A DNA stretch of 64,000 nt from a virus. Under the pieces are notes generated by a model that saw nothing but the letters and a program-made list of their open reading frames with translations, had not been told where the DNA came from and ran no database searches. Made by a program: the position numbers and the translations under genes. Of this stretch, positions 14,645 to 64,000 are shown one piece after another (the first letter of the stretch is position 1; each line of letters opens with the position of its first letter). The stretch lies in IMG/VR virus record IMGVR_UViG_3300045988_163663; one strand, given 5' to 3'.

Positions 14645-14712
14645 GGAAAAGGGCTTATGCCCTTTTCTTTTTAGCCTAAAATGGAAATTTTTGGAAAGTC
14701 AAATTTGACTTT

Positions 14713-14745
14713 TATAAAAAAATATGATATAATATTAAAAAAAGA
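14713..14745 (+). promoter_or_regulatory. AT-rich phage promoter-like motif (first copy of late family)
   Basis: TTTATAAAAAAATATGATATAATATTAAAAAAAG; family recurs over 20 times downstream. Confidence 0.45.
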
Positions 14746-15016
14746 TATAATTGCATTAGGGTAGTGATTATTTGTTGTCGGTCGATATAACAATAATAGG
14801 GGTGCCACTGGTGCAGTAGGGCCACCCTTTTCTCAATTTTTAGTAATTTGACACAATTTAGCTCAATTTTAATACAATTTTTAATGATTTTTTAATATAA
14901 TTATATAATTTTATATACATTTTATTAATGTTTGATTATAATATAATTTAATATACCTTATACTACTCTTATTTTATATTATAAGATAAGTAGACTAATT
15001 ATTATATTAGCCTACT

Positions 15017-15586
15017 TTATTTATATCTAAACGGCTACAATCTACCTGCTATATTTCCAATAGGCTAAGATAAGGTAATTAATGCAAATTCCATAGTCTT
15101 TAAATCAGTAGCCGTTAATGCTTTATCTGCCTTTAATTTACTACCATCAATTAATATTTTAAATTCTATATTATCCTCTGGTTTAATTAACTTATAAAAA
15201 TATAGCTTATAATCTTTATTTCTTATATGGCTTTTATGCTCATTCCATCTCTTATTAAAATCAGTAGTACTACCTATATAAATTAACTATCCATTTTTAT
15301 ATACACCATATACTCCACCATCTTTTATTCCTTTATCTTTCCTTATCTATCTCTATTCTTCTTTTTTAATTTTAGCTATCATAGCATCAAATTCTTTCTA
15401 TGTGCCAAACCATCTATAATAATTCTAATTATAAGTCCAATATGGTTTACTCAATTGTTTCTAATCTTCTAAACATATCTCTTTATAATTATTTGGTACT
15501 ATCATAGCTATACGAGGAATACCATATGCCTATTCTCTATACTCTACAAATTTAGATAATGGTTCAAGAGTTTTATATATATTCAT
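15017..15586 (-). CDS. GIY-YIG homing endonuclease (TAG-containing)
   Basis: Minus strand: GVYGVYKNG(Q=TAG)LIYIGSTTDFNKRWNEH; about 8 in-frame TAG and no TAA/TGA over 570 nt of AT-rich DNA. Confidence 0.55.
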
Positions 15587-15789
15587 TAAGTTCTAATAGT
15601 TCTTTATGTTCTTATGAAATCCATAATTTTTCAATTCATATTTTCCTTTCAATTTTTGATTTCGTTTTTCAATTCATTTCTTAAAATATTTCTTTACACC
15701 CATCAACCCTACACTACCACGGGGAAGACACCCGCCACAAAGGAAGTACCCTAAAGCTTGTATGCGAAGCATACAAACTTTTACAAACA

Positions 15790-16175
15790 ATACTTATTTA
15801 CATTTATATTCTTATTGTGCTTGTATCGCTTGTAAAAATCCATTTTCTTGTAAACATTTAAAATTGCTTGTAAAAATTGCTTGTAAAATAAATAAAAATG
15901 CTTGTAATACAAGGAGTAGATAAAAATGCTTGTAAAATTGCTTGTAAAAATCAAGTCTTTCATTTAAAATTTTACAAGCATTTTACAAGCAAAAATTTTT
16001 TACAAGCAAAATTGCTTGTAAAAATAGATTTTTACAAGAACTTTTACAAGCAAAAATTTCCTATCCTTGTAAAACAAGCTTAAAAATTAAAATCCGCCTT
16101 TTTACAAGCATTTTCGTCTTGTATACAAGATTTTTCATCTTGTAAAACCTTCGCTTTACTTGTATTTTTCTTATG
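15790..16175. repeat. iteron array GCTTGTAAAA / TTTTACAAGC (over 20 copies, both orientations)
   Basis: Direct reading of repeated 10-mer with 1-12 nt spacers; not CRISPR-like. Confidence 0.7.
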
Positions 16176-16601
16176 TTCTTCTTCATTTATCATTTCAGGA
16201 TACATTTCTTTAATCTTTTTTAAACGAGCACTTACTGTCTGTTGAGTAATAGCCCCATGTAATCTATCTGAAATCTATTTCTATGTCATACCCTAATTAT
16301 AATATTCAGCAATTTTATCTAATGATAATTCAGCTACTTGTTTAGCTTTGCCTTCTTCTTTCTTTTTCTTATAAGTCTAATCTGTCTTATTAGTCTATGT
16401 AATAAATGGATTTAATATAATTTTAAACATAGCATCATCACTACTATAATCACCAGTCATAGCTACTTCTAATATAGCCATAGCTAATTCTCCCCCTCTA
16501 ACAGGGTCTAATTCATATAGTTCTTTTGCTGATTTAAATGTATCTTCATAAATAATACCACTATTCTTTAAACAAGGAGTATCTTTAAATTCTTTTATCA
16601 T
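16080..16601 (-). CDS. HTH DNA-binding protein (TAG-containing)
   Basis: Minus strand: ...YYN(Q)GMT(Q)K(Q)ISDRLHGAITQQTVSARLKKIK with TAG at conserved Gln of HTH; 3' end overlaps the iterons. Confidence 0.5.
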
Positions 16602-16779
16602 TATTTTGTACCTCCTTGAAATACGTATCAAGAGCCTACATTAAATCAGGCGTTTCTTCATAAACCCAACAATTTAACCATTCATATTGAGGATTCTACA
16701 TTTCAATAATATATTTAAATCCTAACCCTTGAAGATAAATATGGACTTTTAGTGAATAAATAATCTTTGTATTTGGCAT
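16585..16779 (-). CDS. hypothetical small protein (TAG-containing)
   Basis: Minus strand: MPNTKIIYSLKV..., two in-frame TAG. Confidence 0.3.
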
Positions 16780-19107: not shown

Positions 19108-20517
19108 ATGTATAATGTATATGTTTGTAAAGTAAAAAACATTAGACCTGCGGAGAATGCTAATCGTCTGAATGCCTGTGAAGTATTTGGTATTACTACC
19201 ATTGTTGATAAATCCGTGAATGAAAATGACCTCTACGTCTATTTCCCCACGGATGGTCAAATTAGTGAAGAGTTTGGTAAGGCAAATGACCTCTTCCGCC
19301 GCAAGGATGAGAATGGTAATCCGGCGGGCGGTTTCATTGACCCTGTGAAGCGTAATATTGGTGCAATTCGTCTTCGCGGTAATAAGTCCGAAGGTCTTAT
19401 CCTTCCACTTACTTGCCTTACACCTTTTGGTGACATCAGTAATCTGGCCGAAGGTGATATTGTATCTACCTTCAATGGTCATGTAATCGCCGAGAAGTAT
19501 GTGCCGATGCATAAGCCCAGAGTTTCAGAGTCTACTGCACGCGGCGAACACAACCATAAGTCTGCAAAGAAATGCCGCATTAAGTATCCATTCTTCGCAG
19601 AACATATTGATACTCCCCAGCTTCGTTTTAATATGGATATGTTTAAGCCGGGCGACATTATCTGCTTGACCGAGAAGGTCCATGGTACCAGTTCTCGAAA
19701 CGCATATCAGACTGCAATTGTTGGCGAAAACGGTTTCTTCCTTACCAAGCTTATTGCACATAGCAACTGGCTGCCGAAGAAGTGGCGTATGTCCGCACAG
19801 TCTCACCTTACCCCTAAAACTGAAATGCGTTATCTGATTGGTACTCGCCGCACTGTCCTTACTAACAATAGCACCGGCGGCTTTTATGACAATGATGACT
19901 TCCGTAAGGCTTGGGGCGAGCGTTTCAAGGGTAAGCTTCTGCCTAATGAGGAATGCTTCGGTGAAATTGCAGGCTTCTACAAAGATAATTATGGCGGTGC
20001 AGTTCCTATCATGTCTCGTGGAGATAATACTAAAACAAAAGATAAGCAATTTATTAAGCAGTATGGTAAGACTACCACTTTCTCTTATGGATGTACTGAA
20101 ACTGGTTATTACACTTATGGTGATGGTACTCATGAAGAAAGACCGCTTAACCGCTATTTTGTTTACCGTATGACTTATACTACTCCTGAAGGTGTAGTAA
20201 TTGAATATCCTTGGGACCTTGTTAAGCAGCGTGCAGAACAGATGGGTTTTGAAACTGTGCCTGAACTGGAACGTTTCATCTACACCACTGAAGAGGATTT
20301 CCTCGCACGGATTGCCAAGTATGAGGATATTCCTTCTACGATTGATTCTTCTCATGTAATTGAAGGTGTAGTTATTCGCAAGATGAATGGTACACGTTTC
20401 GACGTTGCAAAAGATAAATCTTATAATTTTAAGGTACTTGAGAATCTAATTAAGGTTGATGCCGAAGTGCCGGACATGGAAGAAATTGAAGAAGAAATGA
20501 CTCTGGAGGATAATTAA
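19108..20517 (+). CDS. RNA ligase (Rnl2-like nucleotidyltransferase)
   Basis: LTEKVHGTSSRN matches T4 Rnl2 motif I KIHGTN; EGVVIRK...KDK resembles motifs IV/V. Confidence 0.55.
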   Translation: MYNVYVCKVKNIRPAENANRLNACEVFGITTIVDKSVNENDLYVYFPTDGQISEEFGKANDLFRRKDENGNPAGGFIDPVKRNIGAIRLRGNKSEGLILPLTCLTPFGDISNLAEGDIVSTFNGHVIAEKYVPMHKPRVSESTARGEHNHKSAKKCRIKYPFFAEHIDTPQLRFNMDMFKPGDIICLTEKVHGTSSRNAYQTAIVGENGFFLTKLIAHSNWLPKKWRMSAQSHLTPKTEMRYLIGTRRTVLTNNSTGGFYDNDDFRKAWGERFKGKLLPNEECFGEIAGFYKDNYGGAVPIMSRGDNTKTKDKQFIKQYGKTTTFSYGCTETGYYTYGDGTHEERPLNRYFVYRMTYTTPEGVVIEYPWDLVKQRAEQMGFETVPELERFIYTTEEDFLARIAKYEDIPSTIDSSHVIEGVVIRKMNGTRFDVAKDKSYNFKVLENLIKVDAEVPDMEEIEEEMTLEDN

Positions 20518-22030: not shown

Positions 22031-22305
22031 TGAAATACGTCGTTTGGAATAGTTGCAATGATGATTTAATTTGCTGTGATAACCGAGCTTCTGCCGAAGA
22101 ACTTGTTCTATCTATCGCCGAGGAAGAAGCATTTATCGAATATAATTATGGCATTAACAAACTTGATGATGCCGATACTCTTGAAGAATATACAGATACA
22201 TTACGTGATTGGTGGAAGAAATATCAATGTAGTAATGAATGCATTGCTCTTTTCTTTGGCGGAATTAATTACTACATTAGAGCTATTCCAAGTTTGGAGG
22301 ATTAA
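22030..22305 (+). CDS. hypothetical protein, tandem paralog 4 of 4
   Basis: DNRASAEELVLSIAEEEA. Confidence 0.45.
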   Translation: MKYVVWNSCNDDLICCDNRASAEELVLSIAEEEAFIEYNYGINKLDDADTLEEYTDTLRDWWKKYQCSNECIALFFGGINYYIRAIPSLED

Positions 22306-22307
22306 AT

Positions 22308-22538
22308 ATGTATTTTAGATATAAAGTAAACTGGAATTTTGATGACAAGTCAAAAGATGAGACAGGACTTGTGTATTCTGATAATGACGTTGATGAAGGA
22401 TATACTGATGCTATGGAAAAAATTTGTCAATATTTTGATAGCATCAATAAGGTAGAGCTTGAAGCATTCGCCCCTGATGATTGCCTTGAAGTAAGTGCCG
22501 AAGCACTTGATGCAATTCAGGAGAATGTGCTGTGGTAA
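22308..22538 (+). CDS. hypothetical acidic protein
   Basis: ORF 76 aa. Confidence 0.4.
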   Translation: MYFRYKVNWNFDDKSKDETGLVYSDNDVDEGYTDAMEKICQYFDSINKVELEAFAPDDCLEVSAEALDAIQENVLW

Positions 22539-26045: not shown

Positions 26046-27203
26046 ATGAGTTATTTATTTACCAGTGAAAGCGTTTTTGCCGGTCATCCTGATAAGGTTT
26101 GTGATTAGGTAAGTGATGCTATTCTGGATTATGTCCTCCAGCTTGATCCTGATGCACGAGTAGCTTGTGAATGTACTATTAGCCCAGGCATCTTCCATAT
26201 TATGGGAGAGATCACAGCTAAAACAGAACAATCTATTCCTTATCAGGAAATTGCAAGAGAGACTTTAAGATTTATTGGTTATGACAATGATGAAGCAGGA
26301 TTTAACTGCGACACTTGTTCATATATTATTAATGTAGTAAATCAATCCCCTGACATCGCTGCGGGTGTTGATAGGGATGGTGCTGGCGACCAAGGCATGA
26401 TGTTTGGTTATGCAACCAATGAAACAGAAAATTATATGCCTATCGCTCAGCAACTTGCTAACAATATCTCGGTCATTATGTTTAGTAAGTATAAAAATGA
26501 TTTGCTACCTTGGGCATTACCTGACGGCAAATGCCAGATAACTGTCCAATACGATGATGATGGCAACTTTGAAGGGGTAGATACAATTGTCGTATCGGCC
26601 CAACACAAAGACAAGTATAGTATTAAGGAAATAACGCCCGATATTACGAACATTTGTAATATTGCCCTTCAAGGTTATGCCATTAAAAAAGATTGTAAAT
26701 TTTATATTAACCCAACAGGTAAGTTTGTGAAGGGCGGTCCCCAGGCTGATACTGGATTAACAGGACGTAAAATCGTTGTAGATACATATGGTGGCTACGC
26801 TCCGCATGGTGGTGGAGCATTCAGTGGCAAAGACCCCAGTAAGGTAGACCGTAGTGGTGCATATATGGCACGTTATGTAGCTAAAAATCTTGTAGCTTCT
26901 GGCGTTTGCGATAAGTGCATGATTCAAGTTGCTTATATCATTGGGCAGACAGAACCTGCATCTATTGATATTAATTGTTTTGGCACAGAGAAGAAACCTA
27001 TTGCTGAAATTCTTGATGCAGTTAATCAGACATTTGATTTTGCACCACGCAGTATTATTCATAAATTTGATTTAAAGCATACTCGTTATCTGCCCTATGC
27101 TTGCTTCGGTCATTTTGGTCGCATTGAATGCAATAGCCCTTGGGAACAGCTCGATAAAGTAGAAGAATTAAAAACAATTTTTGATTTTAAAAAGGAGAAC
27201 TAA
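26046..27203 (+). CDS. metK: S-adenosylmethionine synthetase
   Basis: FTSESV..GHPDKVCD(TAG)VSDAILD aligns to MetK HPDKIADQISDAVLD; GDQGMMFGYATNET and GGGAFSGKDPSKVDRS motifs. Confidence 0.8.
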
Positions 27204-29169: not shown

Positions 29170-29582
29170 GCAAGGTAATGTCTGGTCCAGGCAATCCTTT
29201 TGTATTTAATCAGATGGATTTTTTAATGGGTCGTATTAAGAAAGAAGACACATTAAATAAATACCATATGCTTCTTAAATCAGGCAGAGTTATTCTTGAA
29301 GACTATTGGTGTTGGCATGGTCATGAATGGTATAAAGCATTAGTTAAATGTCTTAATGATTTTTATATTGTAATTATATCAGAAATAGATGTAATTAGTA
29401 TAGAAAGAATAGAAAATCCAACAGTAGATTCTATCTATATGGAATATATATTGGCAAGCAGAATGAGAGGAGATGAAGTTGATGGCGACTCTATATATGA
29501 TGTGCGGCTTGAGTGCAAATGGAAAGACTACATTCGCGAAATCCTTCGCAAAGATGAATCACATCCGGTATGTAAACCCTGA
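29154..29582 (+). CDS. hypothetical protein
   Basis: ORF 142 aa; 3' end overlaps kinase gene by about 110 nt in another frame. Confidence 0.35.
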   Translation: MEFDMSKVMSGPGNPFVFNQMDFLMGRIKKEDTLNKYHMLLKSGRVILEDYWCWHGHEWYKALVKCLNDFYIVIISEIDVISIERIENPTVDSIYMEYILASRMRGDEVDGDSIYDVRLECKWKDYIREILRKDESHPVCKP

Positions 29583-47927: not shown

Positions 47928-47973
47928 TTTAAAAACATTTATTGAAAATATATATAATTGTAAAATATATTAT

Positions 47974-51141: not shown

Positions 51142-51218
51142 GGGACAGTAGCTTACGAGGTCGGAGCATTGGTCTGAAAAACCAAAGGATGGAGGCTCGA
51201 TACCTCCCTGTCCCACCA
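51142..51218 (+). tRNA. tRNA-Phe (GAA)
   Basis: GGGACAG/CTGTCCC acceptor, anticodon loop CTGAAAA, CCA encoded. Confidence 0.65.
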
Positions 51219-51500
51219 ATTGGTCTTACACATGGGGTTTCCGATTTGAACTAGGCAGATTAGTCACCTGCCGTTGGCAATAGACCAATTAAAAATAAAC
51301 TGAGGCAAAGGGAAATCGGGTAGTTATGATGAACTTCATAATGAAATCCTCTTGTAATCAAGCTAATTGGGAGAGAGGTAGCACGGGAACGGGGAGAAGC
51401 GTGCTATAAAAGGTGAAATACTTCTTTCCACCATAAGCCGGTGTAGCCGAATGGCATAGGCGAATGGAATTGAACTGAAAATTTTTTGGTTCAATTCCAT
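51219..51500 (+). ncRNA. structured RNA candidate
   Basis: TTGGTCT...AGACCAA, GGCAG-9-CTGCC, TAGCACG-14-CGTGCTA, GGAATTGAAC-13-GTTCAATTCC; no ORF. Confidence 0.3.
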
Positions 51501-51548
51501 TAATGAATAATTTTTAATTTCTAATATATTATGAAAGGAGAGATTGTT

Positions 51549-52016
51549 ATGGCTCGTTCAGATATTTTAGAAAAAGAAAAAGAAATTCGTTAGTGGATAA
51601 ACGAAGAAAAATCTAAACGTTATATATGTGAATAGTTGCATTGTAAACCTGAAACTTTAAATTCTTATTTGGAGAAAATGAATATTGAATATAAGGGATA
51701 GCCTTATAAAAAAGGATAGAATAAAAATCCTCGATGTTATAAGCCAGCTATTTATTATATTGATAATCATAAGTATATTAGCTCTTCTGTTTTAAGACAA
51801 AAATTAGTAAAAGATGGATTGAAAAAAGACAAATGTGAAATTTGTGGTATTTCTATGTGGCAAGGAATTAAATTACCTTTAGAATTACATCATAAAAATG
51901 GAAACCATTTTGATAATGATTTAAATAATCTACAAATTTTATGTCCTAATTGTCATTCAATTCAAAATGGAAATAGTGGAGCAAATATCGGTAAATACGC
52001 GGGATTGCTGGAATAG
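51549..52016 (+). CDS. HNH homing endonuclease (TAG-containing)
   Basis: CEICG...HHKNGNHFDNDLNNLQILCPNCH; 5 in-frame TAG upstream. Confidence 0.55.
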
Positions 52017-52083
52017 GTAGACAACTCATCTTTAGACGGTGAGGCCGACAGGTGTGAGGGTCCGAGTCCCTCATCCCGCACCA
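51999..52083 (+). tRNA. tRNA-Leu (TAG anticodon), type II
   Basis: GCGGGAT/ATCCCGC, anticodon loop TTTAGAC, long variable arm, CCA. Confidence 0.6.
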
Positions 52084-52373
52084 ATCATATTCAAAAGAAA
52101 AATTATTGTTGTGATTGTGGAAAAGAGATATGTTTAAAAGCTATTAGATGTAAATCTTGTGCATCTAAATTTAGACAAAATTCTAAATCTCCAGATAGAG
52201 AAATTTTAAAAGAATTAATTAGAACTACACCATTTGTAACTATAGGGAAAATGTATGAAGTTTCTGATAATGCTGTCAGAAAATGGTGTAAAAATTATGA
52301 TTTACCTTATTAGTCATTAAAAATTAAAAAAATTTCTGATGAAGATTGGAAAAATATTTAATATATAAGGTGT

Positions 52374-52401
52374 GAAGGTTCGAATCCTTTCACCGGTACC
52401 A
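52374..52401 (+). ncRNA. tRNA 3'-half-like element
   Basis: GAAGG-TTCGAAT-CCTTT CACCGGT A CCA; no 5' half found. Confidence 0.3.
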
Positions 52402-52469
52402 ACAGTGAAGTAGTAGCTATACTCATTATAATCAAGGCTCGGTGGTTGGTGGCTCCATCGTTATGTAAA

Positions 52470-52546
52470 TAAGCCATATGTATATTACTTCTTGGTGTAA
52501 TGGAAGCATACTGCCTGAAAGAGGCGGAGGTATTGGTTCGATCCCG
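52470..52546 (+). tRNA. tRNA-like gene, unresolved
   Basis: T arm ATTGG-TTCGATC-CCGAT at 52522; anticodon-like CTGCC-TGAAAGA-GGCGG; acceptor pairing imperfect. Confidence 0.3.
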
Positions 52547-52894
52547 ATAGAAGGAGTAATTAAAGCTAGGAAATGATAATCGCCTAAATAAATAAAGGAT
52601 TATTATTAAAGATTATTTAGATTAAGGAAGCGGTTAAAGTTATTACTTACTTGATTATAAAATAACATGACCGCAAGACGAGTGTTTGAAGCTTGTCTAT
52701 AAACAAATTCTTCATATGTTGTCTTTTATACTTACTCTTTGGCTGTTTCTTGACATATAAGTAAAAGCGGAAAGGGAGTTAAAGGTTCAGCTAAAAAACC
52801 GGTTTGTTTTTTGATAAGATTTTAAAAATTAGGTGGCAAAATCTTATTTGAGTGACGCTGCTCAAGAGGGTCCGGAACCTCTAAAATGCGATAT

Positions 52895-53027
52895 GCGCCA
52901 GTGGCCAAGTGGTATGGCACCTGCCTTTGTGGAATTGATGTAAGTAGCATTTTAATGTATTGGTTCAAATCCAATATTCCGCACCATAAGCAGGGCAACG
53001 CGGGTTCGATCCCCGCCTGGCGCACCA
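52895..53027 (+). tRNA. tRNA-Gln-like (UUG) with about 58-nt insertion in anticodon loop
   Basis: GCGCCAG...CTGGCGC-A-CCA; D arm GCCAAGTGGTATGGC as in tRNA-Gln; CCTGC(52920)+CTTTG ... AA+GCAGG(52990) gives loop CTTTGAA after removing insert. Confidence 0.5.
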
Positions 53028-53233
53028 TTTGAGTTAAAAAGTATAAATCTTATAAACTCCCTGTAAAATCAGGCGGACAGATGGACCGATAGTACCATTA
53101 TTGTGGAAGTCAGGCAGGTCCATTTTACTGGGCTTACTGTAAAAGCCAGTTTAATACACCCTCCATACCCAATGAGGAATTTTTATAAAGGTCTATTTAA
53201 TTTTTCTTGGTAGTTTAGTTAAATAGACTGTAT

Positions 53234-53310
53234 GCGGGATTAGCTCAGTTGGTTAGAGCGTTTGGTTTACACCCAAGAGGTCATTGGTTCGAATCCAATA
53301 TCCTGCACCA
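53234..53310 (+). tRNA. tRNA-Val (TAC)
   Basis: Canonical cloverleaf, loop TTTACAC, G3:U70, CCA. Confidence 0.65.
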
Positions 53311-53376
53311 ATAAATTTGAAAATTTAAAAAAAATATTATATAATATATATATAATAATAAAGGAGATATTTGAAA

Positions 53377-53543
53377 TGGCAACTACTAAGAAACCTGCAA
53401 TTAAAATGGACAGCACAGAGTTGAACGAGTATCTTCTGTTCCGCCGTCGTAGATCAATTGTGCCTGCCAAGAAAGGTAAGGGCATGGAATATGATAGAGC
53501 GAAGGAAAAAGAAAAATCTGAAAAAATGATTTCTGATGAATAA
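53377..53543 (+). CDS. small basic protein
   Basis: AAAGGAGAT RBS; MATTKKPAIK... Confidence 0.4.
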
Positions 53544-53547
53544 ATAT

Positions 53548-53620
53548 GCTCCCATCGACAAGTGGTCTAAGTCACCAGCCTTTCACGCTGGAGTCGCCGG
53601 TTCAAATCCGGCTGGGAGTA
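53548..53620 (+). tRNA. tRNA-Glu (TTC)
   Basis: GCTCCCA/TGGGAGT, loop CTTTCAC, T arm GCCGG-TTCAAAT-CCGGC; no CCA. Confidence 0.55.
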
Positions 53621-53704
53621 GAGATACAAATTCTACAACCTTCACGCGGTGTATCTTGTTTTAACTAATGTAGAATAAAGTAAATAAAAAGGAGCTGTTT
53701 AATT

Positions 53705-54328
53705 ATGGCATACATTTATTAGATTATTAATGATATAAATTAGAAAATTTATGTTGGTAAAACTGAATTTTCTATTGAAAAACGTTTTAAAGAACATTGT
53801 AAAGATGCTTTTAGAGAGCGCAATGAAAAACGTCCATTATATTCAGCAATGCGAAAATATGGAGTAGAACATTTTCATATTGAACTAATTGAAGAAACTG
53901 ATGATGCTAATAATCGAGAAACTTATTGGATTGAAAAATTAGGTTCTTTTAAATGGGGATATAATGCTACAATAGGCGGAGATGGTAAAAAGTATCTTGA
54001 TTATGATTTAATTATTGCTTCTTATCAAGAAATTAAAAATATTGAAGAAACTGCTCGTAAATTAGGAATTTCTTCTGATAGTGTAGAAAGAATTCTTAAA
54101 GAAAAAAAAGAAAAAATTTATTCTCAACAAGAAGTTAATTTAGTTAAATCAGGTAAAAAAGTTGCTCAATGTGATAAAAAAACTGGAAAAATTTTAAATA
54201 TATTTCCATCTATTGGAAGTGCAGGTAGAGCTATTAATAAACCTGATATTACTCATATAAGCGCTGTATGTTTAGGTAAAAGACAAAGTGCTTATGGTTA
54301 TAAATGGAAATTTATTGAAAATAATTAA
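53705..54328 (+). CDS. GIY-YIG homing endonuclease (TAG-containing)
   Basis: MAYIY(TAG)IINDIN(TAG)KIYVGKT aligns with I-TevI GIYQIKN...KVYVGS, putting TAG at Gln. Confidence 0.6.
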
Positions 54329-54342
54329 AATTATTCTTATAT

Positions 54343-54419
54343 GGTGCTATAGTTCAGTTGGCTAGAATGTCGGACTGTCTCTCCGAAGGTCAGGGGTTCG
54401 AGTCCCCTTAGCATCGCCA
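54343..54419 (+). tRNA. tRNA-Asp (GTC)
   Basis: Loop CTGTCTC, T arm AGGGG-TTCGAGT-CCCCT, GCCA end. Confidence 0.65.
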
Positions 54420-54511
54420 TTCGTTTTCTCGATATAAGCGATTTTGTTACATAGAACTTGATAGAGCGTTCTATTAATCTGGTTAGATTAAGTTTTATAA
54501 CTATCATATTT

Positions 54512-54587
54512 GGGGCACGGGACTGCATGGAGTGGTCGTCTCCCTTGCAAGGAGAAAAGCAGATGAGTTCGATTCTCATGTGTTCCA
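54512..54587 (+). tRNA. tRNA-Ala (TGC)
   Basis: G3:U70, loop CTTGCAA, T arm ATGAG-TTCGATT-CTCAT; no CCA. Confidence 0.55.
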
Positions 54588-54726
54588 GTCATCTAAGATC
54601 CACAACCGCCACGAGGTAGATGATGGGTAATGCTAATAGTGGACAAAAATAAAAATCGGGCAAAGTTAATTAAACTCCTCAAAAATTTTGCTAAATATAA
54701 TAGAAGGAAAAAAGGAGTTGAATTAA

Positions 54727-55359
54727 ATGCCTAGAAAATTAACTCAAGAAGAATTTGAACAAAGAGTTTATAAATGTGTAGGGGATAAATATTTTGTTAT
54801 AAGTGAATATAAAGGAAAATCTAAACCAATAGATTTAAAATGCAATATTCATGATATTGTTTTTCAAGCATCCGCAGAATGTTTTATGCGAGGTCCAAAA
54901 GAAGTAAGATGCTCTTGCCCTAAATGTTCAGAAGAAAAGAAAAATGAAAAATTTTCTGCAAATAGAACTGAATTAGAATGTGCTTATTGTGGAAAGAAAT
55001 TTATTCGTCCAAATTCTAAATTGAATAATTCAAAAAGTGGAATATATTTTTGCTGTAGAGAACATAAAGATTTAGCTCAACGGATAGAGTTTGGTTTGAA
55101 AGAAATTCAACCAAATCATTATGGAAATAATATTGAAAGTATATATACTTATCGTAAAAATGCTTTTAAATATTATCCTCATAAATGTGCTATCTGTGGT
55201 TGGGATGAAGATAAAGATATTTTAGAAGTTCATCATATTAATGAAAATAGAGAACACAATGAATTAGAGAATTTAATCATATTATGTCCTATTTGTCATA
55301 AAAAATTAACTTCTCATAAATATAAATTAATTAATAGGGAAAAAATTATTTCTTATTAA
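54727..55359 (+). CDS. HNH homing endonuclease
   Basis: CAICGWDEDKDILEVHHINENREHNELENLIILCPICH. Confidence 0.6.
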   Translation: MPRKLTQEEFEQRVYKCVGDKYFVISEYKGKSKPIDLKCNIHDIVFQASAECFMRGPKEVRCSCPKCSEEKKNEKFSANRTELECAYCGKKFIRPNSKLNNSKSGIYFCCREHKDLAQRIEFGLKEIQPNHYGNNIESIYTYRKNAFKYYPHKCAICGWDEDKDILEVHHINENREHNELENLIILCPICHKKLTSHKYKLINREKIISY

Positions 55360-55382
55360 TTTATGAAAAATTTATAATATTT

Positions 55383-55425
55383 GGAGCTTGAGGCAAAGCG
55401 AGTTCGACTCTCGCAAGTTCCACCA
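55383..55425 (+). ncRNA. 43-nt tRNA-like minihelix (acceptor stem + T arm only)
   Basis: GGAGCTT-gaggcaaa-GCGAG-TTCGACT-CTCGC-AAGTTCC-A-CCA. Confidence 0.3.
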
Positions 55426-55477
55426 TTAAGTGTGATATATTCCAAACACGTAGGGTGGTAAGCACACGGGTTTTCTA

Positions 55478-55553
55478 GAAGCCTTCCCTATGAATATGGA
55501 TGCATAGCTCAGTTGGTAGAGCAATTGACTGTTAATCAATGGGTCGGAGGATC
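55478..55553 (+). tRNA. tRNA-Asn (GTT)
   Basis: GGATGCA-TA-GCTCAGTTGGTAGAGC, loop CTGTTAA, GCCA end; unusual T loop ATCATAC. Confidence 0.6.
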
Positions 55554-55677
55554 ATACCCTTCTGCATCCGCCACCGCACTCGCGGAAAACATACAACTCA
55601 ACTGGTGCATAGAACTTGATGGAGCGTTCTATTAGTCTGATGCCTGCATTAGATTAAGTTTTATAACCATCATATTT

Positions 55678-55751
55678 GGGGACATAGTTTATGGTAGGAA
55701 AACGTTGAATTTAATTCAAAGTCGAGGGTGCGATTCCCTCTGGCTCCACCA
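55678..55751 (+). tRNA. tRNA with anticodon loop ATTTAAT (UUA), shortened 15-nt anticodon arm
   Basis: GGGGACA-TA-GTTT..AAAC, TTGA-ATTTAAT-TCAA, T arm GAGGG-TGCGATT-CCCTC, TGGCTCC-A-CCA; one acceptor mismatch. Confidence 0.35.
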
Positions 55752-55885
55752 TTTATGAAAGACAATACAGCAATTATAAATTTGCTTTGGGAGCCGTGTG
55801 TTGTAGGTTCGAGTCCTACTGTCTGGTTGAAGATCGGATATAGCGTAATTGGTAGCGCAACGTATAAAAATTGTCTTGTTAATAT

Positions 55886-55961
55886 TGCGGGATCGTCAAG
55901 TGGTTAAGACACCAGCCTCATAAACTGGTTATCGTGGGTTCGAATCCCACTCCCGCAACCA
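55886..55961 (+). tRNA. tRNA-Met (CAT)
   Basis: TGCGGGA/TCCCGCA, loop CTCATAA, T arm GTGGG-TTCGAAT-CCCAC, CCA. Confidence 0.55.
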
Positions 55962-56085
55962 TATGAAAAGCCCACACAGCAATTTTTAATAAGGTTAAAT
56001 AAGAAATTCTGCAAAAATTTTTTAGAGTTGGTTCAAATCCAGCAAATGATTTTAGGGCTTTGTTAAAATTGTTAAGGAGAAAATA

Positions 56086-56271
56086 ATGAAGTTCAATCCA
56101 GGAGATAAGGTCTGGTGTAAGAAGTATGGCAAGGGTAAGTGCCGCAAGACTGATGATAAGGACAATTTCATGACTTATCTTTTCAGATTTTATGATGGTA
56201 CTCTGATTTGGATGCCAAAACGTCAGGCTGAACATTTTGTAAGAGTTCGTTCCACCGAGGCCACGGTGTGA
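56086..56271 (+). CDS. small basic protein
   Basis: ORF 61 aa, AAGGAGAAAATAATG RBS, TGA stop. Confidence 0.4.
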   Translation: MKFNPGDKVWCKKYGKGKCRKTDDKDNFMTYLFRFYDGTLIWMPKRQAEHFVRVRSTEATV

Positions 56272-56430
56272 ATATAAAGTCCGGTTATAGGAAATCCTGT
56301 CATTAGGCGGCAGGCTACCGGTAATCCTTTCTTATATATTTAAATATGTAAGGAACAAAAACTATACAATAGATAGAGTTTTTACGCCTTGGCGCAATGC
56401 TTGTTTTTTACTATCTATTTTTTTATATTC

Positions 56431-56517
56431 GGAGTCGTGGGATAATGGTATTCCAATGGATTGCTAATCCATCCTACCTCTTGGGTAGTCCGCGTTCGAG
56501 TCGCGGCGATTCCGCCA
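56431..56517 (+). tRNA. tRNA-Ser (GCT), type II
   Basis: GGAGTCG/CGATTCC, loop TTGCTAA, 17-nt variable arm, GCCA. Confidence 0.6.
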
Positions 56518-56523
56518 TTATAT

Positions 56524-56611
56524 GTAGGAGTGCCAGAGTGGTCGATTGGGTTAGTCTCCAAAACTAATTGTAGCTGCACATCCAGGGTTCGAATCCCTTG
56601 CTCCTATGCCA
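56524..56611 (+). tRNA. type II tRNA with apparent CCA anticodon (Trp-reading?)
   Basis: GTAGGAG/CTCCTAT-G-CCA; anticodon stem TTAGT/ACTAA, loop CTCCAAA; 14-nt variable arm. Confidence 0.4.
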
Positions 56612-57336: not shown

Positions 57337-58410
57337 ATGGCTGAAATTATTAAGTTAAGACGCGGTAAATCAACCAGTTGGTCTAAAAAGAATATAATTC
57401 TTGCAGCTGGTGAAATCGGCGTAGAGCTTGATACACATTAGATTAAAGTCGGCGATGGTTCAACCCCTTGGAATGAACTATCTTATGTAGGCGGAACTAA
57501 AGTTGTTAATGTTCAAGAATACACTGACAATCCAGCAGTTGTAGATGGCGTGCCTTATCAATCTATTGATGTAGCATTTATGAAGGCTCCAGCTGGAAGT
57601 ACAATTCGTCTTAATGCTAACTTTGATAACAGTGTTTCTATTGATAAAGAATTAACTATTGAATTAAATGGTAATGATATTATCAATAATGAAAAAACTC
57701 CAATAGATATCAAAGTAGGCGGCGATTTAACTATCAAGGGCCAAGGCACTATTGAATGCAATAAAAATAATAATGCCGCAGTTTTTAATAATGGTAATAT
57801 TACTATTAATAATGGTAAATTACAACGTACTACTGACGTATCAGGTAATGGCTATTATACTGCCGTTAATCATGGCACTATGATAATCAATGGCGGCATG
57901 TTTATGAGCGGCGGTGAATTTTCCAGTATGATTGAAAATGGATACTGGGATTATAATGCCGGTAATACTACAAACGGCTATGTTCAAGGTCAAAATGCTG
58001 AAATGCCTACATTAACTATTAATGATGGTACATTCGCTGGCGGCTTATATGCTATAAAAAATGATGATAATGCTGTTTTAAATATTAATGGCGGCACATT
58101 CTATAATACTATTCTTGCTAATGGTAAGTCATTGACTATCACTGATGGATATTTTGAAAATAGTAAACCAAGTCAAGGTGAATATAATTTATATCTTCGT
58201 AAATTAAGTGAAGATATAAATCCTCAAAATACATATATCAGTGGCGGCACATTTATTACTGCACAAGATAGCAATTTCAAAGTTGAAGGCGAACCGCATA
58301 TTGAAATTAGCGGTGGCCGTTTTAATAGAGAATTAGATCCTTCTTATCTAGCTCCTGGCTATAGACAAGTACTTGTCAATGGCTTCTATACTGTCTAGAA
58401 GGAGGAATAA
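57337..58410 (+). CDS. tail-fibre-like protein with shared N-terminal module (TAG-containing)
   Basis: MAEIIKLRRGKSTSW...GEIGVELDTH(TAG)IKVGDGSTPW; beta-helix-like GG repeats; TAG at 57439 and 58396. Confidence 0.5.
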
Positions 58411-58413
58411 TCT

Positions 58414-58929
58414 ATGGCTGATATCATCAAGTTCAAAAGAGGTCGATCAACTACATGGCGCGAAAAGAACTTATTACTTAAGGATGGCGAGCCTGGATTT
58501 GAATTAGATACTCATAAACTGAAAATTGGTGATGGTAAAACCTTATGGAATGATTTACCATATATCGGTGGCGAAAGTGGTACAATTGATCTTCCTGATA
58601 ATGTAATGGAATTTTTAGGCACAGTTGATACACTTCCAGCTACTGCTGAAGATGGAGAAATGTGTATTTATGATGGCAAATTATATATTTATGATGGTAA
58701 ATGGACAACTACAGAAACTTCTTCTTCAGCACAAAATTCTTTCAATTCTTTAGTAGATGCAATTAACTATATTACTTAGCATAATTGTGTTGGTCAAATT
58801 GTATCTATCTTTTAGAATAATAAATGGTTGCCTTATATTGTAGATGTAAATAATAATCTTGTACCTATTCAATATGGAGAAGATCATTATGATATTCTTA
58901 ATGGCGGCAACGCAAATACTCTTAATTAA
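58414..58929 (+). CDS. tail-fibre-module protein (TAG-containing)
   Basis: MADIIKFKRGRSTTW...ELDTHKLKIGDGKTLW; two in-frame TAG near 3' end. Confidence 0.45.
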
Positions 58930-58951
58930 TTTTATAGGAGGAAAATAATTT

Positions 58952-60169
58952 ATGGCTGAAAATATTCTTAATACTCGCATTCAAGTATTAAATGACACGG
59001 CTGAAGCTCTTAAAGCAAAAGGTAGTGCAGTCCCAAAAGCTGGTGAAATTGTTTACGAGAACGATACTCGTAAAATGAAAATCGGTGATGGTACTACTAC
59101 TCTTGAAAACTTAAAATATTTTGGTGGCGAAGCCGCTCAAAATTTTGAAGCTACTCCAAAAGGTGAGGAAACTGATGTTCAGGCTATTACTCGTGTTGTA
59201 GCTTCTGCAGAACTTCATAATGGCGATACTGCTATTGTAAAGCGTGTTATTACTGGCGATAAGACTTCTTATACTGCTTACGTATATGACGGTGAATGGA
59301 AAGCTATGGATGGCAATTATCGTGCTGATAATGTTTATTTTGATGATGACATTACCTATACTGTTGCTATTGGCACTTTAGCTGAGCCATCTGGTTCTGC
59401 TAAATTTGCAGCTAAAGGTAAGAGCGTTGAACAGGTCCTTTCTACCTTAATGGCCAAGGAAGCTAATCCTTCTAAGTCTGATCCTGCTGTTAGTTTCAGC
59501 TCTACTAGCGGACTTGGTACATTTGAAATTGGCACGAAGAAGAATTTAACATATACAGCAGCTCTATCTGCTGGTAGCTATACTTATGGTCCAGCTACTG
59601 GTATTACGGCTCAGAGTTGGAGTGTAAAATGCACTGGTGTTGAAGATGTCCTTGATACTGCTACTGGTTCTTTCGATAATGTTGTTGCTGAAGCAACAGC
59701 TAAAAAAATTACTGCAACCGCAACTTATGGCGACGGCACTATTCCTAAGACCAATCTAGGTAATTCTTATCCTGCTAGCCAGATTAAGGCAGGCTCAGCA
59801 TCTAAAGATAGCAATGTCCTTTAGGGTGTCCGTCATATGTTCTATGGTCCTATGACTACTGATGCAGCTCTTGATAGTACTACTATTCGTGGATTAAAAC
59901 ATGAAGCTGCTAGTAAAAAGCCTATTACTACATTTGGTGCAGGTGCTGGAGCAAAGAAAGTTGTTATTGCTTGTCCTGCTGGATATAATGTAACTAAGGT
60001 TCTTATGCCTAGTGCTATGAATGCTGATGCTACTGCTAACTTTGTAAAGCAAGCTGGTACTGTTAATGTTGAGGGTGCTGAAGGATATACTGCAGTTCCT
60101 TATACTGTTTGGGTATATTAGCCCGCCTCAATTGATAGTACTGAAACTTATGCTGTTACAATTGGTTAA
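58952..60169 (+). CDS. tail-fibre-module protein (TAG-containing)
   Basis: MAENILNTRIQVLND...KMKIGDGTTTLENLKYFGG; TAG at 59822 in frame with ORF 59837; ends TAA 60167. Confidence 0.5.
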
Positions 60170-60193
60170 TTTATAAAGGAGGAATAATATAAT

Positions 60194-62884
60194 ATGGCTA
60201 CTATTTTAAAAGATGCTGCCTATATGGCTCTTCCTATGAATATCAAGCGTGGTAATCCTATCCCTCTTGATACTACTGCTGTATGGTACGATAAAACTGA
60301 ACTAAATAAGTATGCAGCTTCTGGTGCTACTGCATATGTTGGTCAGATTCTAACATTATGCGCCGATAATAAGTGCGAAGCTTATATGATTTCTAATGAA
60401 GCTGGTACATTAATTAAACTAGCTTCTACAACCGCTTCTGGTGACCTTGCTGGCGATGTTGCTACTCTACAAGGTCAAGTTACAAATCTTATTTCTAAGG
60501 TTGGTAAAGCAGCTGATGGTGAAGTAGCAGCTACTGGTCTATATAAAGAAATTGCTGATGTTCTAGCTATTGCTAATGGCAAGGTTACTTCTGTTAAGGC
60601 AGCTGATAAGTCCATTATGGTTGGTGGCAATGCTACTGAGCCTACTGTTAAGGTAGCTATTGCATCTGGTGAGGATAATGCTCTTTCACTTGCAGCTGAT
60701 GGTCTGAAGGTTGTTATTCCTGAAGTGACCGTGCCTGAATATAGCATGAAGAAGCTGGATGTCGCTACTGAGGGCATGTCCGCATCTTATCAGCTAACTA
60801 AGGATGGCACAGCTATTGGTGCAGTTATCGACATTCCAAAAGACATGGTTGTTAAGTCTGGTTCTGTTCAGACATTTGCAGCTGGTGAAGTACCCGCTGG
60901 TGTTACTGAGGCTGGTACATATATTGTATTAGTTCTAGCTAATACTACTAATGATAAATTATATATTAGAGTCAATGATTTAATTGAATATGTCACCTCT
61001 GGCTCTGCTGCAGATGATATGGTATTCATCAATATTGATCCTAAGACTCATAAGGTAACAGCAAAAATTACTGACGGTAGCATCACTGAAGCTAAACTAG
61101 CAAAAGCTGTTACTGATAAGCTCGCTTTAGCTTCTTCTGCTATTCAGAAGGTCGAATCTGGTACTGCTAATGGCACTATTGCCGTTGATGGTACTGATAT
61201 TGCTGTCACTGGACTAAGGAGTGCTGCATATACCGATTCCACTGCTTATGATACTGCTGGTACTGCTGCTGGTATAAAGACAGCTCTTGAAGGTGCTGAT
61301 GCTGATAAGGCTGATGCTCTTACCATTAAGGGTGCTAAGAAATATGCTGAGGAAAAAGCAACTGCAGCTCAGAGTGCTGCTGAAACAACTGCAAAGGGCT
61401 ATGTTGATGGCCTAAATCTTGCTGATAAAGCTGTTACCAAACAGCTCGTTTCTGCCGTTACGCAGACTAATGGTCAAATTGCAGTTATTCGCCGTGAACT
61501 AGTTGCTGATGATATTCCCACTCTTGGTATTTCTAAAATTGATGGTCTTCAGGGTGCTCTTGGCGCTAAGTAGGATACCGTCGTATTTGATGGTGAATAT
61601 TCAGCAAGTAATAAAGCTGCTACAGTAAGCACTGTTAATACTGCTGTTGATAATTTACGTCATACTGTTGATGGTAAAGGTAAAGATATTGATACCCAAG
61701 ATAGTCAAACTATCCATGGTGCAAAAATTTATGCTGATGAAGTCAGTAAGGCTACTCTTGGTTAGGCTAAAACTTATGCTGATAGCTTAGTCGGTGATAG
61801 TTCTGCTATTGCTGGTCGTGTAACTACTCTTGAAGGCAAAGTTGATGTAGCAAAGGTTAGTACTGCTATCTCTACTGCTAAGAATGAGGCTATTGAGGCC
61901 GCAGCAACAGATGCCGCATCTAAAGATACTGCTTTAAAGACTGAGATCCTTGGGGACGGATATACTGGTACTGTAAAGGAAGCTTATGACCTTGCTAATA
62001 AGAAAACTACTATGACTGAGGTTGAAGCTAAGGGCTATGCTGTTAAGACTGAAGTTGATGCAGCTGTTGCTGATGCAAAACAAGCTGGTACTGATGCTCA
62101 GACTTCTGTTGATACATTAAGCGGTAAAGTTGGTACTATTCCAGTAGGTGCTAAAGCTACTACTGTTATTGGTTATGTAGATGAAAAAATTGCGGCTATT
62201 CCTTCACAGGTTAATTATACCGTTACTGCTGATGTTAGTAGTCCTACTGGCATTGCTAAGCGTTATGTTCTTAACCAGAATGGCAGTGAGATTGTAACTA
62301 TTGATATTCCTAAAGATATGGTAGTTAGCTCTGGTACTGTTGAGACTAAGGCTGATGCTGGTGTATGGGGTGTTGCAGGTACTTATCTAGTCCTCACTCT
62401 AGCTAATGCAACCTCTGATAAGGTATACATTAATGTTGGCGACCTTATTGAATATGTAACTAGCGGCTCTTAGGCTGGTGATATGGTTGAAATCAAGATT
62501 GATGCCGACCATAAGGTCACTGCCGTTATCAATGATGGTACGATTACAAAGGCAAAGCTAGCTTAGGCTGTACAAGATAGCCTAGATAAAGCTGATACAG
62601 CACTATAGGCTGCCGATCTTGCACCGTATGCAAAGACTGCTGATATTAAAGCTGGCTATGTTGCAAAAGAAGAGGGCAAACAGCTAATGACCGCTGCTGA
62701 AAGCACTAAATTGGCCGGTATTGCTGCTAATGCACAGGTCAACGTGATTGAAGTCGTTAAGGTTGGCGGCACTGCTCTTGAAATTGCTGATAAAGCTGTT
62801 AATATTGAAGCAATCAGTACTGATCTATTAACTCAAGGTGCTAAAACTCTTATTCTCAATGGTGGCACCGCTGCTTCTCTTTGA
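60194..62884 (+). CDS. large structural/tail fibre protein with internal about 100-aa repeat (5 in-frame TAG)
   Basis: 2691 nt = 897 codons in one frame; repeat IDIPKDMVV.SG.V...GTY.VL.LAN.T.DK.YI.V.DLIEYVTSGS at about 60830 and 62290. Confidence 0.55.
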
Positions 62885-62949
62885 TATATATATACTAGGG
62901 AGAGAGAAATCTCTCCCTTCCAATAGTAAAAGAGAAAGGGGAATAAAGA

Positions 62950-63291
62950 ATGGCTCAAAAAGAATTTAATACACGAATTAAATTAAAGTATGATACTTTA
63001 GATAAATGGTTAAAGAATACATCAGTTGTACTGCTTAAAGGCGAAATTGGCTTATGCTATGTGCCAGCGATTACATCTGGTACAACGACCACAGCTCCTA
63101 CTGTATTATTTAAAGTTGGTGATGGTACAACCACATGGGAAAAACTACCTTGGGGTGCAGGGCTTGGAGCAGATGTCCCGGCATGGGCTAAGGCACCTGC
63201 AAAGCCATTTTATACCCTTGATGAAATAGGTGCTAATCCTGATACCAACTATGTAATTTTCGATTGCGGTTCTTCAACTGTAAATATATAA
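62950..63291 (+). CDS. tail-fibre-module protein
   Basis: MAQKEFNTRIKLKYDTLDKW...GEIGLCYVP...FKVGDGTTTWEKLPW. Confidence 0.45.
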   Translation: MAQKEFNTRIKLKYDTLDKWLKNTSVVLLKGEIGLCYVPAITSGTTTTAPTVLFKVGDGTTTWEKLPWGAGLGADVPAWAKAPAKPFYTLDEIGANPDTNYVIFDCGSSTVNI

Positions 63292-63296
63292 TAATA

Positions 63297-63328
63297 AAGA
63301 CTCCAAAATGGAGTCTTTATTTTTTTTA
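63297..63328 (+). terminator. rho-independent terminator
   Basis: AAAGACTCCAaaaTGGAGTCTTT + T8. Confidence 0.6.
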
Positions 63329-63408
63329 TCTGGACTAATTTAAATAATTTAATATTTTTATTTTTTATATAATTTTAGAATAAGAAACATTGAAAGGAGG
63401 AACTTTCA

Positions 63409-64000
63409 TTGGCAGATAAACAATTAAAATCTTTGAAAATGCCAGGCTTAGAAGATCGATACCTTGTTAAACTAACTGTTAATGAATTATAGGATTTATT
63501 AACTCATATAGAATTCAATGGTGGGATAGCTTATCAAAATGATTTATTTAGTGGCAATTATAAAGATTTAAATAACGCTCCAAAGACTGAAGAAATTGTA
63601 TTTAGAAATGAATTAAAAAGTGAACTAGCTAAATTAGAATATGTAACATTAGATGATTTAAAAAATCATACTAAAATGTTAGAAGCAAAATTTAATGGTA
63701 ATGAAGAAAATGATTTAAGTGAAACCTGGATTATTCATAAAGCCCCATCTTTCTATTTTAAAAGTAATATTGAATTTGTTTCTAATGGAATAACTTATTC
63801 TTCTATAGAATATAAAAAAAATACTTAGCCCAAGAAAGATGGTATTATTCTTGAAGATATGTTATATTATGATACCACTTGTGTTGGTCATAATCCTCAA
63901 GATAATTCTACTATTAATTACAAAGAAATATCTTGGGAAAATTAGGCTTATAATACAATTACATTTACCAAAGAAAAGCCAACAGGTGATTTATTAAGAT
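63409..64000 (+). CDS. hypothetical structural protein, partial, TAG-containing
   Basis: GAAAGGAGG RBS then TTG start (MADKQLKSLK...); at least 4 in-frame TAG; runs off window. Confidence 0.35.

Follow-up and report, generated by a model that had tools for sequence, protein, structure and literature searches.

The stretch of viral DNA analysed here, 64,000 nucleotides (nt) of IMG/VR record IMGVR_UViG_3300045988_163663 and in the following called the window, is part of a 188,486-bp ENA scaffold (ERZ28621461), and two scaffold pieces are 100% identical to the window ends. It belongs to a tailed phage of about 188.5 kb from a human-gut metagenome, and we conclude with high confidence that this phage uses genetic code 15, in which TAG encodes glutamine (Gln) and TAA and TGA are the only stop codons. 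Right of 14.7 kb, dozens of genes are interrupted by TAG alone and never by TAA or TGA, and limiting the stops to TAA and TGA yields long open reading frames (ORFs) with 1-10 in-frame TAG each. Recoding of this type has already been described for gut phages, to which the present phage adds a further code-15 example.

A sense reading of TAG in the right-hand genes, as proposed in a preliminary description of the window, was borne out by protein domains, coding density and related genomes. Pfam models continue across the TAGs for all three MetK domains, two GIY-YIG domains, a radical SAM (S-adenosylmethionine) domain and an HNH domain, and the Pfam model of C5 methyltransferases was matched at positions 1-323 of 324, likewise across TAGs. 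The probability of remaining free of TAA and TGA by chance is 4.8e-12 for the ORF of 288 codons at 47752-48615, 1.7e-15 for that of 447 codons at 45965-47305 and about 2e-18 for that of 897 codons at 60194-62884. The published gene calls for the window's own contig already pass through TAG, and they place the genes of the block from 1 to 14650 on the same strand as we do. That the TAGs are real stops, in pseudogenes, in split genes or at assembly errors, is what the standard code would lead one to expect, and nothing beyond this expectation speaks for it. We reject it as extremely improbable, because the interruptions are TAG only, never TAA or TGA, in DNA of 14-40% GC, because identical TAG positions are kept in independently assembled relatives (113 matches at the DNA level) and because the chance of an ORF of 288-897 codons being open is only 1e-12 to 1e-18.

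Coding density was calculated with a greedy, strand-restricted gene model under table 11, with TAG as sense codon and, as a control, with TGA as sense codon:

1-14.65 kb: table 11, 0.83; TAG-sense, 0.83; TGA-sense control, 0.86
14.65-17.17 kb: table 11, 0.41; TAG-sense, 0.73; TGA-sense control, 0.51
17.17-25.5 kb: table 11, 0.93; TAG-sense, 0.90; TGA-sense control, 0.89
25.5-45.3 kb: table 11, 0.87; TAG-sense, 0.93; TGA-sense control, 0.87
45.3-48.6 kb: table 11, 0.52; TAG-sense, 0.87; TGA-sense control, 0.52
48.6-56.6 kb (tRNA array): table 11, 0.61; TAG-sense, 0.77; TGA-sense control, 0.62
56.6-64 kb: table 11, 0.75; TAG-sense, 0.93; TGA-sense control, 0.75

A gain in coding density and gene length with TAG as sense codon occurred only outside the early block; it was lacking in 1-14.65 kb and present right of 14.65 kb in every segment but 17.17-25.5 kb. 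In the dense stretches, density rose from 0.52-0.75 to 0.87-0.93, and the TGA-sense control brought no gain there. TAA as a second sense codon was considered as well and rejected: genes stop at TAA where their homologues stop and exchange between TAG and TAA is nearly absent, which also agrees with the earlier statement that TAA and TGA still terminate these genes.

The identity of the inserted amino acid was deduced from relatives of the phage. Proteins of the window were aligned to the TAA/TGA-bounded ORFs of related loci and the codons opposite each window TAG were read, which gave a comparison of 70 TAG sites with 12 or more related phage contigs. Opposite the window TAGs we found TAG 105 times, Gln 35 times (CAG 22, CAA 13), lysine (Lys) 18 times, threonine (Thr) 12 times, serine (Ser) and alanine (Ala) 9 times each and tryptophan (Trp) 5 times. 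Residue likelihoods were calculated from the substitution profiles that the real amino acids show in these alignments; Gln was the maximum-likelihood residue at TAG, with a log-likelihood of -324.6 compared to -397.1 for Lys, a difference of 72 units. At the DNA level, in-frame TAG was unchanged 113 times in the closest relatives and was replaced by CAA 6 times, by CAG 4 times, by TGG 5 times, by AAA 4 times and by TAA and TGA once each, while true stops showed six TAA-TGA exchanges and one TAA-to-TAG change. This exchange pattern indicates that TAG behaves in evolution like a Gln codon, unlike a stop, and that TAA is no synonym of TAG. In-frame CAG, CAA and TAG were counted 49, 26 and 1 times in the left part of the window, 98, 78 and 9 times in the middle and 26, 82 and 45 times in the right part; TAG largely takes the place of CAG as Gln codon in the right-hand genes.

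One individual case is a gene with a single TAG:

26046-27203, plus strand: MetK, S-adenosylmethionine synthetase, with one TAG (26106-26108) in GHPDKVCD-TAG-VSDAILD

This TAG aligns with the Gln of the E. coli MetK motif GHPDKIADQISDA and is kept in two relatives. Sites at which the relatives agree on Gln are found in MetK, at residue 390 of a 405-residue protein and at residues 460 and 805 of an 896-residue protein. When the methyltransferase and the radical SAM enzyme were compared to solved structures, the TAG columns were variable, so that these alignments demonstrate read-through but are uninformative about the residue. Alignment of TAG columns to homologues, which had been suggested as a check, therefore gave Gln for MetK and no answer for the methyltransferase. 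The suggestion that TAG is probably Gln is nevertheless supported by MetK, by the likelihood over the 70 sites and by the exchange with CAA and CAG. Insertion of another residue, either Ala by way of a tRNA(UUA) with a G3:U70 pair (55678-55751, listed below) or one of the single-step neighbours Lys, Trp and tyrosine (Tyr), would account for the sites that face Lys, Ala or Trp in relatives, and the tRNA(UUA) does look alanine-like. We regard this as very unlikely, because the likelihood strongly favours Gln over every alternative, the sites of agreement among relatives are Gln and the commonest replacement in close relatives is CAA, which is two mutational steps away from TAG.

In-frame TAG is unevenly distributed along the window, as its rate by segment shows:

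1-14.65 kb: 0.7 per 1000 codons
15.0-16.8 kb, minus-strand island: 24.7 per 1000 codons
17.2-25.5 kb: 0.4 per 1000 codons
25.5-45.3 kb: 1.8 per 1000 codons
45.3-64 kb: 10.4 per 1000 codons

Apart from one true stop, the few TAGs in the count for the left block belong to dubious small ORFs. Instead of one switch at 14.7 kb, there is a gradient of TAG use with islands in it; the boundary proposed there is the edge of a TAG-rich, variable minus-strand island, and the following 8 kb are TAG-free again. The statement that TAG is a sense codon everywhere right of about 14.7 kb thus does not hold for 17.2-25.5 kb. TAG-bearing genes make up about 30% of the genes, the recoded modules are dispersed along the 188 kb, GC content is low and TAA is the favoured stop. 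Within the window, the GC content decreases from 41% at the left to about 28% at 44-52 kb.

The left part of the window differs from the remainder and contains a single in-frame TAG of note:

1-14650, plus strand: block of about 38 small genes with no sense TAG in about 4000 codons
11734-11736, plus strand: TAG stop that ends the gene 11119-11736

Genes for a nucleoside 2-deoxyribosyltransferase, a HAD-like and a MazE/AbrB-like protein and many genes of no assigned function constitute this block, and they end with TAA or TGA, save the one with TAG. We presume that they are early genes that are readable with the standard code. At the TAG rate of 25.5-45.3 kb, about 7 sense TAGs would be expected in 1-14.65 kb and none was seen (Poisson probability about 7e-4). 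At 11734-11736, TAG is a real stop, since its last base is already part of an intrinsic-terminator hairpin (GGGGCA-GAAA-TGCCCC, with a T-run) that extends immediately downstream; stop and terminator together cover 11734-11761, and a back-up TGA lies at 11761-11763. Hence the earlier claim that the block has no in-frame TAG is correct for sense TAG and is to be amended by this one stop. The TAG trinucleotide is scarce in all three frames of the plus strand of 1-14650 (observed/expected 0.61, 0.49 and 0.30) and CTA, its complement, shows no such deficit (1.1-1.2). TAG reappears in minus-strand genes left of the window, with 10 in one gene of 388 codons, and right of the window, structural genes have up to 12 TAG each, with one having none. 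The TAG-free plus-strand block therefore has TAG-bearing genes on either side, and its shape is the one expected for an early transcription unit, with the expression timing deduced from the sequence. Such a block fits the model of early versus late recoding that has been described for crAss-like, Lak and other gut phages (Borges et al., bioRxiv 10.1101/2021.08.26.457843). Restriction of recoding to middle and late genes as in crAss-like and Lak phages, which had been put forward for the window, agrees with the TAG-free block, but the gradient with islands departs from it. In the proposed sequence of events, early genes would be translated by the unmodified host machinery and TAG decoding would switch on later, so that the TAG-bearing structural, homing-endonuclease and accessory genes would be completed only late, while RF2 (release factor 2)-type termination at TAA and TGA would go on.

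Several observations weigh against code 15 or against parts of this scenario. Opposite several TAG sites, relatives have Trp (TGG-TAG exchange at 3 of the 70 sites) or else Lys, Ser, Thr or Ala, and the assignment of Gln depends on a minority of well-conserved sites. TAGs located 1-20 codons from the end of a gene, as in 32626-34344 and 22148-22324, could still be stops, and the early/late timing is something that we infer. No tRNA(CUA) was found in the window by ARAGORN, by Rfam or by a custom stem-loop scan, which covered any 4-5-bp stem with a YU-CUA-R loop and returned nothing tRNA-like; on this point the preliminary description was right. Outside the window, the search covered 14 kb of flanks (9 kb to the right and 5 kb to the left), which contain no tRNA at all, and about 110 kb of the genome lie beyond the scan. 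Neither did the examined tRNA arrays of the closest relatives (that of 3300045988_152007 in part only) contain a tRNA(CUA), and the CUA anticodon arm of the related locus L010 was not found in the contigs of close relatives. No release factor or glutaminyl-tRNA synthetase was seen in the window.

The tRNA genes that bear on the decoding of TAG are the following:

51142-56611, plus strand: tRNA array with 12 tRNAs detected by ARAGORN and 3 by Rfam only, none with a CUA anticodon
48885-48959, plus strand: non-canonical tRNA whose acceptor end resembles that of tRNA-Gln (U1-A72, G73) and whose anticodon loop has 6 nt (GUUAAU)
55678-55751, plus strand: tRNA(UUA) with the loop AUUUAAU and with G3:U70 and A73 in the acceptor stem

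A weak or mismatched 1:72 pair and G73 are identity features of tRNA-Gln, and G3:U70 together with A73 confers alanine identity. In the more distant relatives L008, L009 and L010, the same array ends with a tRNA(CUA) that has G73 and a mismatch at 1:72 and that immediately precedes the tail-fibre module. Because these relatives carry it at that place, the likeliest decoder of TAG would be a Gln-type tRNA(CUA) encoded in the approximately 110 kb of genome beyond the scan. Alternative decoders are the two non-canonical UUA-type tRNAs or a near-cognate tRNA-Gln of the host.

The tRNA at 48885-48959 is identical in four related genomes and is a candidate reader of TAG and TAA. An exact-pattern scan of IMG/VR for a version with a canonical loop, in which loops of 5-9 nt were allowed, recovered only the 6-nt form, in three relatives. 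Two relatives have the tRNA(UUA) with 100% identity, and a third, 3300029858_000001, has it as a chimera and still contains in-frame TAGs. E. coli possesses two types of glutamine suppressors, supE (CUA) and supB (UUA), and the ochre suppressor supB reads UAG by U:G wobble. Both the tRNA(CUA) of the relatives and the tRNA at 48885-48959 resemble supE and supB in the weak or unpaired 1:72 position and G73, and the UUAAU part of the loop of the latter corresponds to a supB-type loop; it differs from them by its 6-nt loop, and its charging and decoding are putative. Decoding of TAG by one or the other UUA-type tRNA with U:G wobble, with RF2 prevailing at UAA, would be in line with the conservation of both genes in the clade without CUA tRNA, with their not being found in the examined parts of relatives that have a CUA tRNA, with the 5' TCCG start and G73-CCA end that the tRNA at 48885-48959 shares with the CUA tRNAs of L008 and L009, and with the scan that found the 6-nt form only. 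It remains an unlikely solution in our judgement: normal decoding by a 6-nt anticodon loop is not known, the tRNA(UUA) is expected to be charged with Ala, a poor match to the TAG alignments, its gene is a broken chimera in 3300029858_000001 despite the in-frame TAGs, and TAG and TAA are not interchangeable in evolution (1 in about 145), with most genes ending with TAA.

Similarly improbable, in our view, is that the phage has no dedicated suppressor, lowers the activity of release factor 1 (RF1) and lets the host tRNA-Gln(CUG) decode UAG by near-cognate pairing. E. coli deficient in RF1 does read UAG largely as Gln, and no tRNA(CUA) was found in the window. A suppressor tRNA is detectable in only about 40% of TAG-recoded phage genomes (bioRxiv 10.1101/2021.08.26.457843), and some recoded genomes without suppressor have been described (PMC10607447). 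On the other hand, TAG is the second commonest Gln codon of the right-hand genes (45 compared to 26 CAG), which would be a heavy load for near-cognate reading, related phages encode a tRNA(CUA), and no RF1-targeting gene was identified.

Besides MetK, the following genes and modules exemplify the use of TAG in the window:

15017-15652, minus strand: GIY-YIG-like gene with 10 TAG, in the minus-strand island 15017-16779
16080-16631, minus strand: helix-turn-helix (HTH)-like gene with 5 TAG, reading N-TAG-GMT-TAG-K-TAG-ISDRL
16585-16779, minus strand: small ORF with 2 TAG
39720-41363, plus strand: Cys-rich protein, one of three paralogues of 475-572 amino acids (the others at 32626-34344 and 43854-45281)
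45965-47305, plus strand: radical SAM/SPASM-type enzyme with 8 in-frame TAG, the alignment to 5wgg crossing the TAGs
47752-48615, plus strand: AT-rich ORF without assigned function, with 6 TAG and no TAA or TGA
49521-50480, plus strand: C5 cytosine DNA methyltransferase whose motif I contains TAG (FAGIGT-TAG)
51531-52361, plus strand: HNH endonuclease ORF with 6 TAG, within an insert of about 907 nt
53705-54328, plus strand: GIY-YIG/NUMOD1 homing endonuclease with 2 TAG in the GIY-YIG motif region
54727-55359: mobile HNH gene with no TAG
57337-64000, plus strand: tail-fibre/structural module (57337-58410, 58414-58929, 58952-60169, 60194-62884 and 63409-end)

The minus-strand island has the densest TAG use of the window, and its TAGs are conserved in the relatives L017 and L018. 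Each of the Cys-rich paralogues contains 1-2 TAG, located mid-gene or C-terminally, and codon 297 of 39720-41363 is TAG where three close relatives have TGG (Trp). The TAGs of 47752-48615 are conserved in two relatives. In the tail-fibre/structural module, which extends past the window, the large genes have 2-5 TAG each, and the ORF 60194-62884 has 5 TAG and no TAA or TGA over 896 codons. The methyltransferase gene is absent from close relatives and is therefore an insertion. A search for related loci with the ORF 54727-55359 gave unrelated contigs because this gene is a mobile HNH gene. Among the genes singled out earlier, the TAGs in the minus-strand HTH gene, in motif I of the methyltransferase and in the GIY-YIG gene at 53705 were all found again, and 60194-62884 is intact apart from its 5 TAG as reported. 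Both HNH genes had been described as interrupted by TAG, which applies to 51531-52361 but not to 54727-55359, and the ORF 47974-48615, to which 8 TAG and about 20% GC had been ascribed, is free of TAA and TGA as stated but has 6 TAG and 14% GC.

The IMG/VR relatives of the phage are 104-201 kb in size, and the closest ones (3300045988_164919, 3300045988_152007 and 3300029858_000001) share 87-96% nucleotide identity. The window's own sequence was absent from the IMG/VR contigs searched, the nearest of which matched it at 87-95%. Megablast with 24 kb of the window gave no match among GenBank phages. A tail protein is distantly similar (38%) to a tail protein of Faecalibacterium phage FP_Brigit, which suggests a host among the Bacillota. 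The window contains genes for tail-fibre proteins, an RNA ligase, a methyltransferase and homing endonucleases, along with the tRNA array, and is without terminase or capsid gene; its likeness to the published code-15 clades (Lak, crAss-like, Jade, Sapphire and Agate; Borges et al., bioRxiv 10.1101/2021.08.26.457843) is one of TAG-use pattern. Shared with those phages are the concentration of in-frame TAG in structural, late and homing-endonuclease genes, early genes that are compatible with the standard code, low GC content, the preference for TAA, the human-gut origin and a large genome with scattered recoded modules. In the Sapphire clade, 26% of the genes have in-frame TAG (bioRxiv 10.1101/2021.08.26.457843), compared to about 30% here. 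Unlike in those phages, no tRNA(CUA) or RF2 gene was seen in the part of the genome that was read.

For crAss-like phages, code 15 has been validated by proteomics (Peters et al., PMC9523058), and the reading of TAG as Gln and the late-gene bias are common to them and to our phage, for which both are deduced from the sequence. The phage appears to be neither crAss-like nor Lak, judged on size or content: the window has no nucleotide match in the phage collection and no Crassvirales core genes, its distant protein matches are to Faecalibacterium phages, and Lak megaphages have genomes of about 540 kb or more. Phassvirus phAss-1 is likewise a gut phage of more than 100 kb; it has a large array of tRNA genes but lacks a dedicated aminoacyl-tRNA synthetase, and TAG occurs in about 28% of its ORFs (PMC10607447). 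It possesses three tRNA-Sup(CTA) genes (PMC10607447), whereas the window and the examined arrays of the closest relatives have none, and no nucleotide similarity was found in the phage collection.

Within and next to the tRNA array, several tRNA genes have an aberrant structure and are conserved. The tRNA-Lys(UUU) gene at 52895-53030 carries a 58-nt insert (52929-52986) between U35 and U36 that resembles an acceptor/T-arm minihelix ending with A-CCA; in contig 152007 (L036, 2026-2100) the gene is uninterrupted, with the loop CTTTTAA, and represents the empty site. ARAGORN in intron mode miscalls 52895-53030 as Met(CAU). A tRNA-like insert of 73 nt (49088-49160) is located in the anticodon loop of tRNA-Ile(UAU) at 49051-49199, between nt 36 and 37. 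Its acceptor stem, CCAAAAU/AUUUUGG, is followed by G-CCA and covaries in relatives (CCAAGAU/AUCUUGG), and its excision in silico yields a perfect tRNA-Ile(UAU). The distant relative L010 shares the unit at 96% identity, and L016 combines a different outer tRNA body with the same insert. A scan of IMG/VR for the core of the tRNA-like insert found it only in the clade, in contig 151351 and in one coding region by chance. We found no description of tRNA-like inserts in the anticodon loops of tRNAs in the literature.

The element at 48677-48772 is apparently a circularly permuted tRNA-Tyr-like gene, in which anticodon arm, 12-nt variable arm, T arm and CCA end precede, after 6-7 nt, the 5' acceptor strand and the D arm. 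Its T stem covaries in L015, the leader AAGACUU pairs with the trailer AAGUCUU, and ARAGORN recognizes the sequence rejoined in silico as tRNA-Tyr(GUA), with A33 instead of U33 in the loop. The resident tRNA-Leu(UAG) gene at 51437-52401 is complete in L011 and L015; here, its anticodon arm has been replaced by the insert of about 907 nt, which comprises the HNH ORF 51531-52361 and, in frame within this ORF, a complete class-II tRNA-Leu(UAG) at 51999-52083. Located 6 nt past tRNA-Ser(GCU) and conserved in L011 and L005, the 88-nt, class-II-like tRNA at 56524-56611 has a 15-nt variable arm, G1:U72, G73, an extended acceptor and short T stem and the anticodon CCA (Trp); Rfam prefers tRNA-Sec for it (38.8 bits, below threshold). 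A family of tRNA-like sequences (window 52485-52557, L003 6510-6582, L009 6332-6406 and L039 844-915) combines a Gln-like D arm (TGGTGTAATGG) with purine-rich anticodon loops without U33 (UGAAAGA, GAAAAAC, CAGUAGAG and GUCAGGA), which ARAGORN assigns to Phe(AAA), Leu(CAG) or a 4-base anticodon. Between tRNA(UUA) and tRNA-Met, and conserved in L011, the sequence at 55795-55865 consists of an orphan T arm (GTAGGTTCGAGTCCTAC) followed by a piece similar to a 5' tRNA half (GGATATAGCGTAATTGGTAGCGC).

Two candidates for hepatitis delta virus (HDV)-like, theta-type ribozymes start exactly past the discriminator base of the CCA-less tRNA-Glu(UUC) and tRNA-Ala(UGC), at 53621-53675 (19.4 bits) and at 54588-54655 (24.5 bits, with E 0.0099 when 261 nt were searched); neither reaches the Rfam gathering score of 44 bits. 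Genes for RNA end-healing and sealing, all TAG-free, are present at 19108-20517, 29473-30018, 36625-37431 and 37629-38408 and encode a DRB0094-like RNA ligase, an AAA_33 kinase, an RlaP-type nucleotidyltransferase and a calcineurin-like phosphoesterase. Theta ribozymes, which are minimal HDV-like ribozymes, were described at tRNA 3' ends in recoded gut phages, in which a DRB0094-family ligase and tRNA adenylyltransferase (tRNA nucleotidyltransferase) are enriched (Kienbeck et al., PMC10879173). The DRB0094-like ligase and the nucleotidyltransferase come close to this description and the two candidates at tRNA 3' ends would conform to it, but both candidates are sub-threshold and neither adjoins a suppressor tRNA. 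It is a rather doubtful, joint possibility that the clade reads amber codons through its non-canonical UUA-loop tRNAs and also matures tRNAs by an undescribed route. In such a route, the CCA-ending inserts in the loops of tRNA-Ile(UAU) and tRNA-Lys(UUU) would be cut, for example by RNase P and 3' processing, after which the phage RNA ligase would reconnect the tRNA halves. The tRNA-like inserts, the permuted tRNA, the tRNAs with UUA anticodon and the HDV-like candidates are side findings that are stranger than the recoding.

For the annotation of this phage, table 15 is required, since table 11 shatters about a third of the genes, including all large tail-fibre genes. The window provides a well-resolved case of a TAG-free early block amid TAG-rich late and mobile genes, with closely related genomes that show TAG swapping with CAA and CAG. 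The clade combines heavy use of TAG, without a recognisable amber suppressor in the examined tRNA arrays, with conserved aberrant tRNA genes, and is thus a good test case for TAG decoding in recoded phages without detectable suppressor.

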